Below, piece after piece: positions 43,788 to 50,188 of a stretch of 64,000 nt of DNA. The notes beneath the pieces were generated by a model. It was not told the DNA's origin. It was given only the letters and a program-made list of their open reading frames with translations, and did not search any database. Location: NCBI RefSeq assembly GCF_036507355.1, contig NZ_AP027877.1; one strand, written 5' to 3'. Positions within the stretch are counted from its first letter, which is position 1, and every line of letters begins with the position of its first letter. The translations under genes and the position numbers were made by a program. This DNA comes from Escherichia coli. GTDB taxonomy: Bacteria; Pseudomonadota; Gammaproteobacteria; Enterobacterales; Enterobacteriaceae.

Positions 43788-44071
43788 ATTGTTAGCATCC
43801 ATAAAGTGAAGATCACACTACACCATAAAGAAGAAACGAGTCAGGAAAATGACATCGAATGGCAACATGCGCGGGCCTGAGGCCAAAGAAATGTAAAACA
43901 CTGTTGTTATTTGTAACAACGGAAACATTTACGGAAATTATTTGTCTTTCTTCGTGATCAAAAATGCTGTGTCTTGTTGGATTGGAGTGATGAGGGCTGC
44001 GTTTAGGAAACGCCCTATATTGTACGGTTGCATTATCGCGGTAGGGGTAATGCACGTGTCAGTATGATGAG

Positions 44072-44200
44072 CTGACCACACTCACGTGGGTGGACTGGTA
44101 TAACAATCGACGATTGCTGGAAAGGCAGGGCCATATCCCACCGGCAGAAGCAGAAAAAGCTTATTATGCTTCCATCGGAAACGATGATCTGGCAGCCTGA
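44072..44200 (+). pseudogene. C-terminal remnant of a DDE (rve-type, IS3-like) transposase
   Basis: Translates to ...WVDWYNNRRLLERQGHIPPAEAEKAYYAS...*, a typical transposase C-terminus; no upstream body. Confidence 0.4.
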
Positions 44201-44298
44201 GTTCACAGATAAAACACTCTCCAGGAAACCCGGGGCGGTTCACTTAGCCGCGTGTCCATTATTGCTGGATAAGATCATAACGAGGTAATGACTCCAAC

Positions 44299-44802
44299 TT
44301 ATTGATAGTGTTTTATGTTCAGATAATGCCCGATGACTTTGTCATGCAGCTCCACCGATTTTGAGAACGACAGCGACTTCCGTCCCAGCCGTGCCAGGTG
44401 CTGCCTCAGATTCAGGTTATGCCGCTCAATTCGCTGCGTATATCGCTTGCTGATTACGTGCAGCTTTCCCTTCAGGCGGGATTCATACAGCGGCCAGCCA
44501 TCCGTCATCCATATCACCACGTCAAAGGGTGACAGCAGGCTCATAAGACGCCCCAGCGTCGCCATCGTGCGTTCACCGAATACGTGCGCAACAACCGTCT
44601 TCCGGAGCCTGTCATACGCGTAAAACAGCCAGCGCTGGCGCGATTTAGCCCCGACATAGCCCCACTGTTCGTCCATTTCCGCGCAGACGATGACGTCACT
44701 GCCCGGCTGTATGCGCGAGGTTACCGACTGCGGCCTGAGTTTTTTAAGTGACGTAAAATCGTGTTGAGGCCAACGCCCATAATGCGGGCTGTTGCCCGGC
44801 AT
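44299..44802 (-). CDS. insB: IS1 InsB (transposase frame)
   Basis: 167-aa ORF ...[42 protein letters not shown]... Confidence 0.85.
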
Positions 44803-44996
44803 CCAACGCCATTCATGGCCATATCAATGATTTTCTGGTGCGTACCGGGTTGAGAAGCGGTGTAAGTGAACTGCAGTTGCCATGTTTTACGACAGTGAGA
44901 GCAGAGATAGCGCTGATGTCCGGCGGTGCTTTTGCCGTTACGCACCACCCCGTCAGTAGCTGAACAGGAGGGACAGCTGATAGAAACAGAAGCCAC
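44721..44996 (-). CDS. insA: IS1 InsA
   Basis: 91-aa [46 protein letters not shown]... Confidence 0.9.
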
Positions 44997-45065
44997 TGGA
45001 GCACCTCAAAAACACCATCATACACTAAATCAGTAAGTTGGCAGCATCACCGGCCTCGCATTTAA

Positions 45066-45911
45066 TTATTCATTTAAAGATTCAAGAAATGTCCAGCCTT
45101 TATGAGTAACATAATACATTTGTCCTTTTGCCCCTCTTTCAATCACAAAATCAAAGGATAACAGTTCGTTAAGTGCGCCCTCCCAACGGGCTACCTCTCT
45201 AGCCGAACTTCCACCAAAGGATTGATTTCCCGCTTGAATATCCGTGCCACCTAAATGCCTTATCACATAAATTGTTCCGCTATCATCGACACATGCCAAT
45301 TTCAGCAAACTGAGTGCATCGGCGGACAAATTACTTTCTGGCAAAGATTGACTTGTATTCGCATCAGGAGAATTGTTAATGGTAGATATAAGAGAAGACA
45401 AATAAGGGCTACTAGAAATAATTATCGAAAGTTGCCTACGGACTTTGTCTTTGAAATCAGATAAGTCATTAAAAGACTCTATCAATCCCTTTTGCATGCA
45501 CTCAATTTTGAACAATTTAAGAGACTCATATTGTTCTCTATCAAGGCTTTCAGGGGCAACAGGCTTTGAGGAAAAGTAAATCATTGCCGGTTTTCCCGCA
45601 TTCAAATGACGGTGAATTTCTTCGACTGTTCCGCTGGCCTCGTTCCCAGTCGGTGAGCCTAGACGAGTCCAAAACACACCGATTAATAAATCACAATCTA
45701 CTAATAATCTTTGATTAATCAACTCCTGAGGCCTAACTCCTAATTCGGGTGATGTATGAGTTTCCCATCCAATTGGTGTCAACATTACTTTTGAACGAGC
45801 TGAATTTATATCATTCCACTCATGGATCATTTCACGAATGACTTGTCTCTCTTCAGCGACATCACCAGGAGAAGCAATCATTACAGGGATAACAGTTGCT
45901 GTGTAAGCCAT
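45066..45911 (-). CDS. Hypothetical protein with DUF4062-like N-terminal domain and an uncharacterised C-terminal domain
   Basis: N-terminus VMIASPGDVAEERQVIREMIHEW ... DCDLLIGVFWTRLGSP ... SGTVEEIHRHLNAGKPAMIYF resembles the DUF4062 pattern as I recall it; GGAGAG RBS 6 nt upstream; visibly AT-rich. Confidence 0.45.
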   Translation of the reverse strand: MAYTATVIPVMIASPGDVAEERQVIREMIHEWNDINSARSKVMLTPIGWETHTSPELGVRPQELINQRLLVDCDLLIGVFWTRLGSPTGNEASGTVEEIHRHLNAGKPAMIYFSSKPVAPESLDREQYESLKLFKIECMQKGLIESFNDLSDFKDKVRRQLSIIISSSPYLSSLISTINNSPDANTSQSLPESNLSADALSLLKLACVDDSGTIYVIRHLGGTDIQAGNQSFGGSSAREVARWEGALNELLSFDFVIERGAKGQMYYVTHKGWTFLESLNE

Positions 45912-45924
45912 AAACTCTCCATAT

Positions 45925-46485
45925 TCAATCGGTAATAGCTGCTACAGTCGCTCTTGAAACGCCATATTGACGCGCTAACGCACTGATACTCAAACCGCTA
46001 TTCTTTTTCTCTAAAATCTCTCTACGGGCTTCTGACGCGATTTTAGGAGGTCTGCCCAATTTCTTACCTTCGGCTTTTGCTCGTGATAGTCCCGCCTGAG
46101 TGCGCTCAATCAGCAGATCACGCTCCATCTCCGCAACCGCGGCGAGCATAGATAATAGCAACTTCCCAGCGGCAGAAGTGAGATCTGTGTTACCAAGCTG
46201 GTGGACAAGAACCTTGATATTACGGTCAGCCAGCGCCCTTACCGTTTGCAGGACGTCAATCGCATCACGCCCCAGACGATCAAGCTTCGCTACCACCAAC
46301 GTTTCACCATCGCGGATTTTATTGAGCATTTCAGAAAATGCTTTACGTTGCATTGCCGGAACCTTCCCGCTAACAACATCGGCAAACCAGTAATCAATTT
46401 GCCACCCAGCCTGCCCAAGCTCCAGCCGTTGGTTCTCAGTATCCTGCTGCGATGTCGAAACACGTCCGTAGCCAAAAGTTGCCAT
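45925..46485 (-). CDS. Small serine recombinase (resolvase/invertase family), about 186 aa
   Basis: From MATFGYGRVSTSQQDTENQ (catalytic Ser region) with a C-terminal helix-turn-helix (LSISALARQYGVSRATV); GGGGAG RBS upstream of the ATG at 46485. The track ORF carries a 23-codon extension. Confidence 0.8.
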   Translation of the reverse strand: MATFGYGRVSTSQQDTENQRLELGQAGWQIDYWFADVVSGKVPAMQRKAFSEMLNKIRDGETLVVAKLDRLGRDAIDVLQTVRALADRNIKVLVHQLGNTDLTSAAGKLLLSMLAAVAEMERDLLIERTQAGLSRAKAEGKKLGRPPKIASEARREILEKKNSGLSISALARQYGVSRATVAAITD

Positions 46486-46507
46486 TGTTATCTCCCCATC
46501 TGACCCC

Positions 46508-46605
46508 TGCCAGAAAACGAGGCCAACATTAGGATGGCCTGCCAGAAAAGCCAAGGCTATTTTTCCAACAGTGTGAAAGCGTGCGATTGGGAGGTGCCAG
46601 AAAAC
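46508..46605. promoter_or_regulatory. Three direct copies of TGCCAGAAAA(C/G) upstream of the recombinase gene, plus a short GGCCA...TGGCC palindrome; candidate recombinase binding or regulatory site
   Basis: Copies read at 46508, 46540 and 46595; the GGCCAACATTAGGATGGCC palindrome lies between the first two. Confidence 0.35.
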
Positions 46606-47460
46606 GGTCGATTGATGACACCATCAAACACTAACAGTGTGCCCCGGCAACGCGCGCCTGCAACGGTTGTCTCGGATGAGCAAAATCTTAGGGTTTTCTC
46701 AGCGACCCCTGACGCGCGGGCACGCACATGCTCACGGGGGCGCGGGCGAGCTATACAGTTGAGGGAGGGGCAACCATAAGCGTGCAATTTTTCAAGCCGG
46801 GGATTCAGCTATAGGCTAACGGTAGAATGCGGCTTGTAGAGGGTTGTGCGCACATACCCAGTACAATCGCATTACTCCACGCGCACAAACCCCGGAGAGC
46901 CGCTTGCGGTGGGGGTTTAAGAGGTACAATTTTTGGTTCGGGTCATAAAGGACTTTTGAGAGCTGACTTAGCTTATTTAAACTGCATTCGTCTTGGCTAT
47001 GGAGACACGAGGCAGCTCAAGTTTTGTTCAAAACTTTGCAATATTTTGGTTCGATCTCATGTTCTCGTGCTAAAGAAATCAGCACTCGATCAAATTTTCA
47101 TTTTTTTTCTGAAACATTGACATACAGCCTAAGCCTTAAGGCACGTAGGGTTGGTCGAAATTTCCCTTTGACAACCTCAATTTAACCTCAAAATCAACCC
47201 TTGTACTGCAAAGAATCCTAACTAGAATGCTGAACATGTAGGGGGGAATCTTATTAACACACCCTATATGTTGTGCTCATGTATAAATGATGGGCATAAA
47301 AAAACCGGAGTCACCTGCGTGAATCCGGTCTATGAAGCATGACCGCCATGAGTCTGCAAACTCATAACGATTGTTAGCCTCACTATCGTTTCTAACGGCT
47401 CGATTGTGCCCGGCTTGGTTGGTTATGTAAACAGTAAGATAAAATCAAAAGGAACGATCC

Positions 47461-48375
47461 ATGCTTATTCAGAAAAAGCGTATTCGAAATATTGATAATT
47501 ACATACCTAACTTTGATGGCCGTGATATCTACATTGCACATTCTTTGCCAGATGCGGGGAAAACGGACTCTATTGGTTTCTCAAGTCAAAGAGCTTTAGG
47601 TGAAGAAGTCCTCCCCAAGATTTTAGGGCCAATAACCAGATTCAATGCTAATGGCAAATCAGTACCTGACAAAACAGCACCTAAAGAAACTGCATACAGA
47701 CAAATTTCATGGACTAGAAAGCAATGGATCGGAGGGGGCGCAACTCAAGAAGTTACTGACACTCGTGAAATTGAGTATAAGCGCTACAAGAGAATCCTCA
47801 CCCCTCCACCAAGCATAGAGTTAAAGATTGTAGAGAATCTTCAAGGGGAGAAGTTGATCATCTCTCCAAAGCTAAGTTTGACAGCTAACAACAAAGAGTT
47901 AGTGGCTCACTGCATTAATCTTTTTTTAGAGCTTTTTGGGTTGTGCGAAACTGTTGACGACCAACTTAATACCATCGTTAAAAGTAAATCTATAAAACTA
48001 AACTGGAGCCTCCTGCCTCAGGGTCAACAGCCTTGGAGTACTATCGGTTCAAAAATCCTTTCAGCTATTAAGATCAGGGGAAAGGGCAATACCGCTGTTG
48101 TTGAAGGCAGACTTGAACTTATCAATAGTAAAAAACCAGATTTCGTAGCGGTTGGGCAAGCTGGGTTCCAAGGCTACGTGATATTTGGGTTCACAGGCCA
48201 AAACATTTACGTGCTAGAAAGCTCACAATGTAATAACGCAACTTATATACTTAACAATAATTGGCAGCAGTTATCCCAGCTAACTAAAGCCGAAATACTA
48301 GACGGAAACTTGCACCATGCCCGTGTCATCCACCGTGTAAACTGGGCAGCAGAAATACTTAAATACTTACCATAA
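47461..48375 (+). CDS. Hypothetical protein (304 aa), no domain recognised
   Basis: ATG preceded by an AAGGAA RBS at about 8-nt spacing; visibly AT-rich; no homologue recognised by eye. Confidence 0.5.
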   Translation: MLIQKKRIRNIDNYIPNFDGRDIYIAHSLPDAGKTDSIGFSSQRALGEEVLPKILGPITRFNANGKSVPDKTAPKETAYRQISWTRKQWIGGGATQEVTDTREIEYKRYKRILTPPPSIELKIVENLQGEKLIISPKLSLTANNKELVAHCINLFLELFGLCETVDDQLNTIVKSKSIKLNWSLLPQGQQPWSTIGSKILSAIKIRGKGNTAVVEGRLELINSKKPDFVAVGQAGFQGYVIFGFTGQNIYVLESSQCNNATYILNNNWQQLSQLTKAEILDGNLHHARVIHRVNWAAEILKYLP

Positions 48376-48888
48376 AGCGCCGGACGCGCGGGAATGAACC
48401 CCCGCGCACTTTCAAACATACCGCAATAGAATCCATAAAGCCCCGTTGGTGGTAAGACAACAAGCGGAGCCTCTGGCGACTACATCACAGTTATGTCAGT
48501 TAGTGAGGCTTATCAGGATGACCATGTACCCAAGGGGAGCGAGGCCGAACCGCTGGCAGAGCTTGCATATGGTCTGCAAGTACCGTGACCACCATAAACC
48601 TGTTTATCCCCTGCGGCGTCTCGCGACAGCGGCAGAACGGGGGCATCGGGCTAAAATGCGCTTCACTAAAAGTTTTTGGGATTGTTTAGAGACAGTGGCT
48701 ACGTCATAGCTTTCAAGTTGAGTCAGTACGTGTTTGACGCTTGGAACTACACGCCGCTATGAGTTAACATCCCAATTACCACTATCAACCACAGCGGCTT
48801 TTTCAAGGGACATAACAGAGCATTTCTTACAGGCAAAAGAGACAGATTTTATTGTCTAACTACCTGTATTGTAAGGAATTTAGTGACT

Positions 48889-48973
48889 TGGTGCCGAAGG
48901 CCGGACTCGAACCGGCACGTATTTCTACGGTTGATTTTGAATCAACTGCGTCTACCGATTTCGCCACTTCGGC
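48889..48973 (-). tRNA. leuX: tRNA-Leu (leuX type, CAA anticodon)
   Basis: Reverse complement reads GCCGAAGTGGCGAAATCGGTAGACGCAGTTGATTCAAAATCAACCGTAGAAATACGTGCCGGTTCGAGTCCGGCCTTCGGCACCA, a cloverleaf with a long variable arm and CCA end. Confidence 0.9.
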
Positions 48974-49168
48974 ACTGAAGAGGTATGCGGAAAACGTTGT
49001 GGATTATACCTGTCGCACGCCACCATGCAAGCGCCAGCTTGCTCGCACCTCGCTAAGTGCTGAAATTTTCAGCATTGCATACAGCGATGTGTAACCTTTG
49101 TCACACTCCAGGCACCCCGCCCTGCCATGCTCTACACTTCCCAGACAACACCAGAGAAGGACCAAAAA

Positions 49169-50188
49169 ATGTCGATGATAAAAAGCTATGCCGCAAAAGA
49201 AGCAGGCGGCGAACTGGAAGTTTATGAGTACGATCCCGGTGAACTGAAGCCACAAGATGTTGAAGTGCAGGTGGATTACTGCGGGATCTGCCATTCCGAT
49301 CTGTCGATGATCGATAACGAATGGGGATTTTCACAATATCCGCTGGTTGCCGGGCATGAGGTGATTGGTCGCGTGGTGGCGCTCGGGAGCGCCGCGCAGG
49401 ATAAAGGTTTGCAGGTCGGTCAGCGTGTCGGGATTGGCTGGACGGCGCGTAGCTGCGGGCATTGCGATGCCTGTATTAGCGGTAATCAGATCAACTGTGA
49501 GCAAGGTGCGGTGCCGACGATTATGAATCGCGGTGGCTTTGCCGAGAAGTTGCGTGCGGACTGGCAATGGGTGATTCCACTGCCAGAAAATATTGATATC
49601 GAGTCCGCCGGGCCGCTGTTGTGCGGTGGTATCACGGTCTTCAAACCACTGTTAATGCACCATATCACTGCCACCAGCCGCGTTGGGGTAATTGGTATTG
49701 GCGGGCTGGGGCATATCGCTATAAAACTTCTGCACGCAATGGGATGCGAGGTGACAGCCTTTAGTTCGAATCCGGCGAAAGAGCAGGAAGTACTGGCGAT
49801 GGGTGCCGATAAAGTGGTGAATAGCCGCGATCCGCAGGCACTGAAAGCACTGGCGGGGCAGTTTGATCTCATTATCAACACCGTCAACGTCAGCCTCGAC
49901 TGGCAGCCTTATTTTGAAGCGCTGACGTACGGCGGTAATTTCCATACGGTCGGTGCGGTTCTCACGCCGCTGTCTGTTCCGGCCTTTACGTTAATTGCGG
50001 GCGACCGCAGCGTCTCTGGTTCTGCTACCGGCACGCCTTATGAGTTGCGTAAGCTGATGCGCTTTGCCGCCCGCAGCAAGGTTGCGCCGACTACCGAATT
50101 GTTCCCGATGTCGAAAATTAACGACGCCATTCAGCATGTACGCGATGGTAAAGCGCGCTACCGAGTGGTCCTGAAAGCCGACTTCTGA
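49169..50188 (+). CDS. ahr: NADPH-dependent aldehyde reductase (zinc alcohol dehydrogenase family)
   Basis: From [26 protein letters not shown]...GHEVIG...GIGGLGH. Confidence 0.9.

Follow-up and report, generated by a model that had tools for sequence, protein, structure and literature searches.

A resolvase-type site, a phage-end remnant and a promoter leader meet at a probable island-fusion joint beside leuX in Escherichia coli

The exchange of modules at site I of a resolution (res) site is well known for Tn3-family transposons. The satellite P4 resides at the tRNA gene leuX and carries the cos site of its helper, and Chung and Hinkle reportedly found in 1990 that plasmids bearing the T7 concatemer junction (terminal repeat and flanks) together with a phage origin were packaged during infection. 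Satellites of virulent T7-like coliphages are, to our knowledge, not among the described families, and a literature search for E. coli satellites linked to Bonnellvirus, to Autographiviridae or to T7-like phages found nothing relevant. The present analysis concerns a 975-bp region (46486-47460) in a 64,000-nucleotide stretch of the Escherichia coli chromosome around leuX (contig NZ_AP027877.1; hereafter the window). With a probability of roughly 0.65, this region is read as a recombination joint of three functional pieces: a res target, the phage-end remnant of a stub left by a second type of island (family 2), and the expression leader of a cargo gene. The res site alone is an ordinary feature of a known kind. 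The interest of the region lies in a probable, precise island-fusion scar and in the lead that it gives to a satellite family probably tied to Bonnellvirus, to an nrdAB promoter that appears co-opted and to a new candidate small RNA (sRNA).

All of the window to the left of the 3' end of the leuX tRNA gene is island DNA, and the genes ahr and yjgR, to the right of leuX, lie outside the island. The region and its boundary are framed by the following features.

48889-48973, minus strand: tRNA-Leu(CAA), leuX, found by ARAGORN and Rfam; integration site and right-hand island boundary.
45925-46485, minus strand: small serine recombinase, type A, 186 amino acids (aa); open reading frame (ORF) as annotated in RefSeq relatives.
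47461-48375, plus strand: orphan gene, 304 aa, island cargo.

The 975 bp between the recombinase and the orphan gene are present essentially whole in 89 of 5426 complete E. coli genomes, with 99.6-100% identity among the matches listed, and no feature is annotated under them in the RefSeq E. coli records among those matches. A further ~400 genomes share only 46486-46617 with the window, always with the recombinase, and in other genomes the shared part is only 46755-46917, 46611-46804 or 46758-47460. An earlier note, made from the letters of this DNA alone, had described a region with short ORFs only and a GC-rich internal stretch, and both descriptions hold: GC content is 0.575-0.59 across 46600-46900 versus about 0.38-0.43 across 46900-47600.

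The recombinase is a small serine recombinase with an N-terminal catalytic domain, in which the active-site serine (Ser10) lies within the motif YGRVSTSQQ, and a C-terminal helix-turn-helix (HTH; Pfam Resolvase 8.8e-37, HTH_7 9.6e-6). Its nearest solved relatives are gamma-delta resolvase (1.4e-25, full length) and Gin invertase (6.5e-23). It falls below the cut-off of every NCBIfam model, the best sub-threshold model being that of the Mpi-family invertase. The three copies of TGCCAGAAAA(C/G) (TGCCAGAAAAS) that had been noticed within about 120 bp of the recombinase start are exact at 46508, 46540 and 46595, all on the plus strand, and begin 23, 55 and 110 nt upstream of the ATG at 46485. No further exact copies occur in the 64 kb. 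Allowing up to one mismatch gives 10 matches where 3.05 +/- 1.81 are expected, a count that none of 100 shuffles reaches. The repeats organise three putative subsites.

46508-46539, no strand: res subsite III, nearest the gene; half-site TGCCAGAAAACG and conserved block TAGGATGGCC.
46540-46567, no strand: res subsite II, 28 bp; TGCCAGAAAAGC-CAAG-GCTATTTTTCCA.
46595-46620, no strand: res subsite I, candidate crossover site, hybrid in the window; TGCCAGAAAACG-GT-CGATTGATGACA, centre at 46607-46608.

Five type A loci, from diverged islands, are 86-91% identical here, with the half-sites and TAGGATGGCC invariant and the spacers variable. In subsite III the variable part is the 8-9 nt between half-site and block. 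The GGCCA...TGGCC palindrome reported between the first two repeats does exist (46521-46539), but its left arm is not conserved in related islands and only TAGGATGGCC is. Subsite II is invariant across the five islands except for one base of a T-run (GF66.1), and its inverted partner matches at 8 of 12 positions, a score reached by about 5% of shuffled controls. Site I is a 26-bp palindrome of 12-2-12 layout, with its centre 54 bp from that of site II. In its native type A form (ATCC 25922) it reads TGCCAGAAAACG-GT-CGTTTGTTGGCG, with an inverted match of 9/12 (null P about 0.007). The same geometry recurs with other recombinases. The type B enzyme of EC09 and E2348 shares 47% identity with type A. 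Its half-site, GGTAGCA, is a different one and is likewise repeated, and in EC09 the native site I reads TAGCAAGAATCG-AA-CGATTGATGACA, centred 121.5 nt from the ATG versus 122.5 nt in the window. The type C enzyme, 27% identical, has TGTCT-type repeats in the same place.

The comparison supports the reading of the three repeats as a res-like site of the adjacent small serine recombinase. The interval 46506-46620 would be its target, with subsites III, II and I in that order going away from the gene, and the recombinase most likely binds the subsites, acts as a repressor of its own promoter and carries out strand exchange at the site I centre. The earlier note is partly supported in this respect: its suggestion of a res-like multi-subsite layout was right in kind, given the position and geometry of the repeats, the inverted partners at sites I and II and the homology breakpoints that recur at site I in many genomes, while an invertible switch and a structured RNA or decayed gene, which it had also considered, are not supported.

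Site I is also where two unrelated kinds of island meet.

Family 1 islands, at leuX or tRNA-Gly: ATCC 25922, WCHEC020031, BKQWHE and GF66.1, with a fragment on plasmid pTB31P2.
Family 2 islands: EC09, E2348/69, PK8275, LT883142 and LR536431, and also Enterobacter and Kluyvera contigs.

Family 1 islands run from the tRNA through a ~640-aa integrase, one or more variable genes, the res site and the type A recombinase to defence-like genes. Family 2 islands, of ~15 kb, run from the tRNA through variable cargo, a conserved non-coding end, the res site and a type B or C serine recombinase; then follow an unannotated gap of 1.2 kb, a helicase resembling RecQ, some small ORFs and, at the far end, a 403-aa integrase. 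Left of 46608 the window belongs to family 1, and right of this position to family 2: the left half of site I and its GT centre match family 1 islands such as ATCC 25922, and the right half and everything rightward match family 2 islands such as EC09. Type A identity extends through 46610, and EC09 identity (98%) begins at 46609, the first base past the central AA of EC09, so that 46608 is the last type A-specific base and 46611 the first type B-specific one. Independent module switches are seen between BKQWHE and ATCC 25922, which diverge directly after site I, and between E2348 and EC09, which diverge at its right edge.

Strand exchange by a serine recombinase at the central dinucleotide would leave such a top-strand joint, and the joint, compared base by base, resembles the product of a res x res event, either a fusion or a deletion, that involved two islands. 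Both recombinase genes are co-oriented, so insertion of a family 2 island at leuX ahead of a family 1 island would leave the two res sites as direct repeats. The likely history is therefore one in which the two islands stood in tandem at leuX. Recombination at site I would then delete everything between the res sites, namely the family 2 body and the family 1 integrase, with the loss of both integrases, and would join the type A res site at 46607/46608 to a type B site I, of which only the right half is kept, with the tRNA-proximal stub of family 2 behind it. A tandem arrangement at leuX is seen in EC09, where a second integrase-led island directly follows the family 2 integrase, but this island is of another type than family 1; it carries BREX-type genes (DUF1819, DUF1788) interrupted by IS1 (L077 22010-27241).

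An IS1 copy (insA and insB ORFs, 44299-45025) also truncates the family 1 part of the window, just left of a DUF4062 gene, and other carriers of the hybrid joint, such as BR1220, have different DNA at this position. The DUF4062 protein itself (281 aa, 45066-45911, minus strand) adjoins the recombinase; its Pfam match is sub-threshold, and it matches the PADLOC candidate defence family PDC-S60 (1.7e-26).

To the right of the joint, the stub (46609-48888) lacks the integrase and the other backbone of family 2. It begins with two segments that recur in phages.

46609-46762, minus strand: GC-rich, terminal-repeat-like segment of a family 2 island, version 1 (EC09-like); can be aligned with the beginning of the Bonnellvirus terminal repeat.
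46763-46803, minus strand: 41-bp element GGGAGGGGCAACCATAAGCGTGCAATTTTTCAAGCCGGG, present in all family 2 islands and in Bonnellvirus phages, directly before the terminal repeat.

Within the island, 46609-46804 is 97-98% identical to the DNA beside EC09's own res site. The sequence GAGGGAGGGGCAACCATAAGCGTGCAATTTTTCAAGCCGGG is common to all family 2 islands, with two backbone versions to its left and cargo that differs per island to its right, the cargo being variable immediately past 46804. Against eight Bonnellvirus (Autographiviridae) phages, 46723-46802 shows 78-80% identity (E 7e-9) with a nearly identical core, and 46609-46762 shares CCCCCGTG..GC and GTGCGCG motifs with the Bonnellvirus terminal repeat. 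The element occurs once per phage genome, 47 nt past the last late gene (endolysin), where it heads a 600-bp GC/GT-rich repeat tract that lies ahead of three early sigma-70-type promoters and the first early gene. Only the record of phage J8-65 has annotated direct terminal repeats (DTR), of 259 bp; the records of Kc261, BHUENT7 and the "sur" phages start at arbitrary points, so no physical ends can be taken from those. The J8-65 repeat starts with TCGACCC, which aligns to the minus strand of the window as ...GCCCCTCCC followed by TCAACTG, the boundary falling between 46763 and 46762. Thus 46763-46803 corresponds to the last ~40 bp before the phage terminal repeat, and the repeat start corresponds to 46762 leftwards.

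The GC-rich stretch is, on these alignments, a conserved non-coding end of family 2 islands that is homologous to the genome-end region of Bonnellvirus. The stub would accordingly begin with the family 2 copy of a Bonnellvirus genome end, comprising ~40 bp before the repeat and the repeat start. In intact family 2 islands this sequence is probably a packaging or cleavage signal for riding a Bonnellvirus helper, of which the window would hold an orphaned remnant. A repeated promoter for the phage RNA polymerase was also considered for the 45-mer and ruled out by its single copy per phage genome. A block of CACTATAG type, found elsewhere in the island, has only two occurrences in the phage, and a scan of IMG/VR viral contigs for the 45-mer core gave 0 matches.

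Further links to the same phages are found in full-length family 2 islands. One family 2 protein, of 331 aa, matches a major head protein in PHROG (3e-64). Across its whole length it shares 56% identity with the Bonnellvirus capsid (E 8e-131), whereas the next best phage group reaches 43%. It is the only protein-level phage match found when 10 island proteins were compared with PHROGs and two Bonnellvirus genomes were searched by tblastn. In addition, 210 bp of the gap between recombinase and helicase are 87% identical to left-end DNA of the phage. In E2348/69 (L011 5677-5881) this match includes a 45-nt identical block, GCGTATCTAGCGATACTATATCACTATAGACACTTTCATAATTAT, the core of which has a second, inverted phage copy just after the RNA polymerase gene.

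The phage-end homology, the capsid and the left-end DNA together lead to a reading of family 2 as satellite-like and tied to Bonnellvirus. The satellite layout, with ~15 kb between tRNA-Leu and the 403-aa integrase, is found in the full-length relatives only (E2348/69, likewise EC09). Family 2 islands are probably satellites, as far as gene content and homology can tell. A more specific and tentative proposal, rated somewhat below even odds, is that family 2, intact in EPEC E2348/69, EC09 and others, may be an undescribed satellite family of virulent T7-like Bonnellvirus coliphages, which would mimic the terminal-repeat boundary and left-end DNA of the phage and supply its own capsid. The resolvase and res module within this mimic would serve as a swap point for cargo exchange or fusion with neighbouring defence islands, and the window would show one fusion of this sort, fixed in no fewer than 89 E. 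coli genome sequences.

The strongest competing explanation accepts the homology and gives it another meaning: the phage-shared sequence would be some other element passed between phages and islands, such as an origin, a promoter or the target of an island-encoded defence nuclease, and family 2 islands would be defence islands or decayed prophages. HNH and endonuclease VII genes are indeed present in family 2, along with variable cargo that looks defence-like, and a capsid homologue standing alone might serve as a decoy or poison assembly. Moreover, physical ends are annotated in J8-65 only, and this phage is ~72% identical to the phages that match the islands, which weighs against the assignment of a packaging role. 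However, the element straddles the annotated terminal-repeat boundary of J8-65, occurs once per phage genome and stands at the very end of the conserved island backbone, and it is accompanied by further left-end DNA of the phage, a matching capsid gene, an integrase and a length of ~15 kb, as in satellites. A non-packaging role is for these reasons considered rather unlikely.

A second alternative concerns the joint. The repeats could be only operators for autorepression, with the breaks at site I marking the end of sequence constraint and the hybrid having arisen by homologous or illegitimate recombination. Tn3 and gamma-delta res sites are established to double as operators, and several observations sit poorly with a clean site-specific exchange. 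The hybrid has a GT centre and type B sites have AA, and serine recombinases normally require matching centres for a clean exchange; no family 2 site with a GT centre was found among the islands compared, nor any tandem family 2/family 1 precursor among the loci compared. Subsite III lacks a partner half-site, its inverted match of 5/12 being not above chance, and constraint, not crossover, could in part explain why a breakpoint falls at a conserved site. Against the operator-only explanation, the switch from type A to type B takes place within 2-4 bp at the dyad of a 26-bp palindrome, no extended homology is shared on either side to guide RecA, and independent module switches recur at site I in other islands. 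Fusion through the res sites is preferred, and operators without recombination are judged improbable.

The reading of the GC-rich stretch as a structured non-coding RNA or a decayed protein gene of the recombinase module, which the earlier note had raised, is very improbable. High GC content and several inverted repeats speak for it, as does one hairpin with two compensatory changes.

46823-46903, plus strand: imperfect hairpin (arms 46829-46851 and 46881-46903), inverted repeat I2.

This hairpin is conserved at 93-98% in the PK8275, LT88, Enterobacter and Kluyvera loci and at 78% in metagenome locus L062, and besides the compensatory changes it shows G-C to G.T changes that fit the plus strand only. 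Its fold z-score is not significant (-0.26 on the plus strand, -1.59 on the minus strand), and the fold energy of 46800-46925 is no better than that of shuffles. A scan of 44000-50000 with Rfam 15 at E<=1 returned only tRNA-Leu and a chance-level potC match (E 0.54), leaving the GC-rich stretch without any family, and comparison by eye with a group II intron end, a retron msr/msd and an integron attC led to the rejection of all of them, as there was no Rfam match and the core motifs misfit. ORFs that span the stretch cross module boundaries. No pseudogene is annotated there in the RefSeq relatives listed, no direct protein-level search of the stretch having been made. The ~400 genomes that have the recombinase without the stretch also speak against a part of the recombinase module, and the stretch instead travels with family 2 and with phage genome ends.

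The idea that the recombinase is a Hin/Gin-type invertase, with site I as a 26-bp hix-like site and the 975 bp or a larger segment as a switch for the orphan gene, is very unlikely: site I has the 12-2-12 layout of hix and gix, and Gin matches the protein almost as well as gamma-delta resolvase does, with an Mpi-family invertase model as the best below threshold, but three directly repeated subsites beside the gene are the layout of a resolvase and no two inverted sites flank a segment. The earlier note, in considering an invertible or resolvable control region, had itself seen no convincing flanking inverted repeats, and an inverted-repeat scan agrees, giving only short, chance-level pairs around the region and no inverted copy of the repeat within 15 kb. 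Inverted near-matches (one mismatch) lie more than 15 kb away, in a transporter-like ORF and without a palindromic partner. The whole-region matches listed among the 89 carriers are all collinear, in a single orientation, as are the partial matches listed, and an invertible element was rejected for want of a partner site and of orientation variants.

The AT-rich right half of the region contains a module resembling the nrdAB promoter and a candidate antisense sRNA, both of which the earlier note had overlooked.

47073-47276, plus strand: nrdAB-promoter-like module; TTGTAC (47201-47206), 16 nt, TAGAAT (47223-47228).
47261-47276, plus strand: NrdR-box-like palindrome ACCCTATATGTTGTGC, within the nrdAB-promoter-like module.
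47298-47396, minus strand (47396 to 47298): candidate sRNA of ~100 nt, antisense to the orphan-gene leader.
47304-47329, minus strand: hairpin of the sRNA terminator, with U7 at 47298-47304.
47403-47431, minus strand: promoter-like site for the candidate sRNA; TTTACA, 17 nt, CACAAT (consensus scan).

The 20-mer starting at 47081 occurs in 34 Enterobacteriaceae loci, and in 28 of the 33 that can be aligned it lies immediately upstream of nrdA, which was identified by the downstream ORF start MNQSLLVTKRDGSTERINLDKIHRVLDWAAEG. Over 170-219 bp, 47073-47274 is 73-81% identical to nrdA upstream regions (E down to 7e-45). Compared by eye with the NrdR consensus, box 2 matches at 13/16 positions and box 1 at about 7/16, the degeneracy of box 1 in the window being a point against a fully nrdAB-like module. 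A covarying RNA hairpin had been considered at 47238-47273 and was dropped, since the alignment with nrdA shows two NrdR-box-like palindromes there. In island copies a hairpin, a reverse terminator and the candidate sRNA gene stand where the nrdAB promoter has its DnaA-box segment. The co-opted nrdAB-type promoter would read rightwards into the orphan gene, with a leader of ~220 nt. In the spacer between the hairpin of the GC-rich stretch and this module (46918-47072), a sigma-70-like TTGAGA-16-TAAACT (46956-46983, plus strand) is conserved only with the same cargo.

By its sequence, the candidate sRNA combines a promoter of its own with stem-loops that are conserved and, on that strand too, an intrinsic terminator. 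Its promoter hexamers are invariant in three clades of islands (window-type, AB66-type and Enterobacter sp. 10-1; 23 loci including metagenomes), with a spacer that differs. On the minus strand the predicted fold has -42.2 kcal/mol with a z-score of -4.81 (0 of 200 shuffles), versus a z-score of -1.62 on the plus strand. In an alignment of 8 distinct homologues, pairing is kept in 96.4% of cells, both partners change in 4 of the pairs (5 of 500 shuffles), and six conserved G.U pairs fit the minus strand only, being C.A on the other. The alignment consists of 8 sequences from ~3 clades, so the covariation is limited, which tempers the case for an RNA. The candidate has no Rfam match in the scan of 44-50 kb, and an ATG-led ORF of 11 codons inside it is not conserved and was discarded. 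A terminator-bearing sRNA of ~100 nt that is antisense to the leader would probably modulate the orphan gene.

The weak Rfam potC match lies at 47267-47303 (22.8 bits against a gathering score of 44 bits, E 0.54), downstream of the sRNA terminator. It corresponds to a hairpin, GTGCTCAT...ATGGGCAT, before an A7 run, and the stem is kept, with changes, in other clades.

The orphan protein has no Pfam, PADLOC or NCBIfam match. The same gene with its leader lies beside tRNA-Leu in an Enterobacter chuandaensis contig and in the leuX family 2 island of E. coli LT883142; gene and leader also occur in a Kluyvera ascorbata contig, where the compared locus ends before any tRNA. In other islands the same promoter and sRNA cassette precedes an unrelated 88-aa Cys-rich protein; homology between the orphan protein and this protein behind the same leader was considered and rejected. 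The 88-aa protein (...HKCCGCAYDQGY...) is conserved and has no Pfam match. In AB66-type islands (L056 8554-10989, L012 4316-5657, L062 1891-4409) the cassette lies between a ~190-aa tyrosine recombinase, of FimB/FimE size, and the 88-aa protein, with a DUF4062 protein next to it, and all 16 copies of the cassette seen in these islands share one orientation. Between the orphan gene and tRNA-Leu, the non-coding segment 48424-48707 shares 69% identity with L012 6348-6605, although the island around the latter is unrelated, and may be a conserved segment close to the attachment site.

The locus offers a base-level view of two unrelated tRNA-linked islands apparently welded at a resolvase site, with both integrases lost and the product fixed. 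Fusion at resolvase sites would be a concrete route for the shuffling of cargo among defence islands. The region also leads to a family of islands in which a capsid gene of Bonnellvirus type occurs together with a copy of a phage genome end. The possible satellite nature of these islands can be tested, as strain E2348/69 and Bonnellvirus phages isolated on MG1655 both exist. The combination of an nrdAB-type promoter and a candidate antisense sRNA looks like a reusable cassette, hinting that some island genes are wired to dNTP or replication status.

Compared with the res sites of Tn3 and gamma-delta, the locus shares a small serine recombinase with a C-terminal HTH and three subsites in ~115 bp upstream of its gene, with site I farthest away, and the distance between the centres of sites I and II is 54 bp here versus 53 bp in gamma-delta. 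It differs in belonging to tRNA-linked integrative islands and not to a transposon or plasmid, in the half-site TGCCAGAAAA, in a site I of 26 bp instead of 28, in a site III with one recognisable half-site and in a recombinase that passes no curated family cut-off. With the hix and gix sites of Hin and Gin it has in common a 26-bp site of 12-2-12 layout, an A-rich inner half-site (...GAAAAC-) and a protein of ~190 aa. Unlike these, it has accessory subsites II and III, and neither a second inverted site nor orientation polymorphism.

Among satellites (P4-like, PICI, cfPICI, PLE and PICMI), the resemblance is to full-length family 2 islands, which are ~15 kb long and tRNA-integrated, with an integrase, a replication-type helicase and variable cargo, and which hold what appears to be a copy of a phage packaging-region sequence. 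The differences are that the phages related to family 2 belong to Bonnellvirus (Autographiviridae), virulent podoviruses of the T7-like kind whose genomes carry direct terminal repeats, that family 2 encodes a full-length homologue of the major capsid protein, that the resolvase and res module lies inside the phage-end mimic, and that the window holds a stub only. Like the T7 concatemer junction, the element in the window spans the boundary between the unique right end and the terminal repeat, but it has no sequence similarity to T7 and its packaging role is putative. The enterobacterial nrdAB promoter, finally, is matched at 73-81% identity to nrdA upstream DNA in 12 compared loci from at least seven genera, a match that takes in the AT-rich block upstream, both hexamers (TTGTAC and TAGAAT) and one good palindrome of NrdR-box type, whereas the island copy has its DnaA-box segment replaced and precedes unrelated cargo, the 304-aa orphan here and the 88-aa Cys-rich protein elsewhere.

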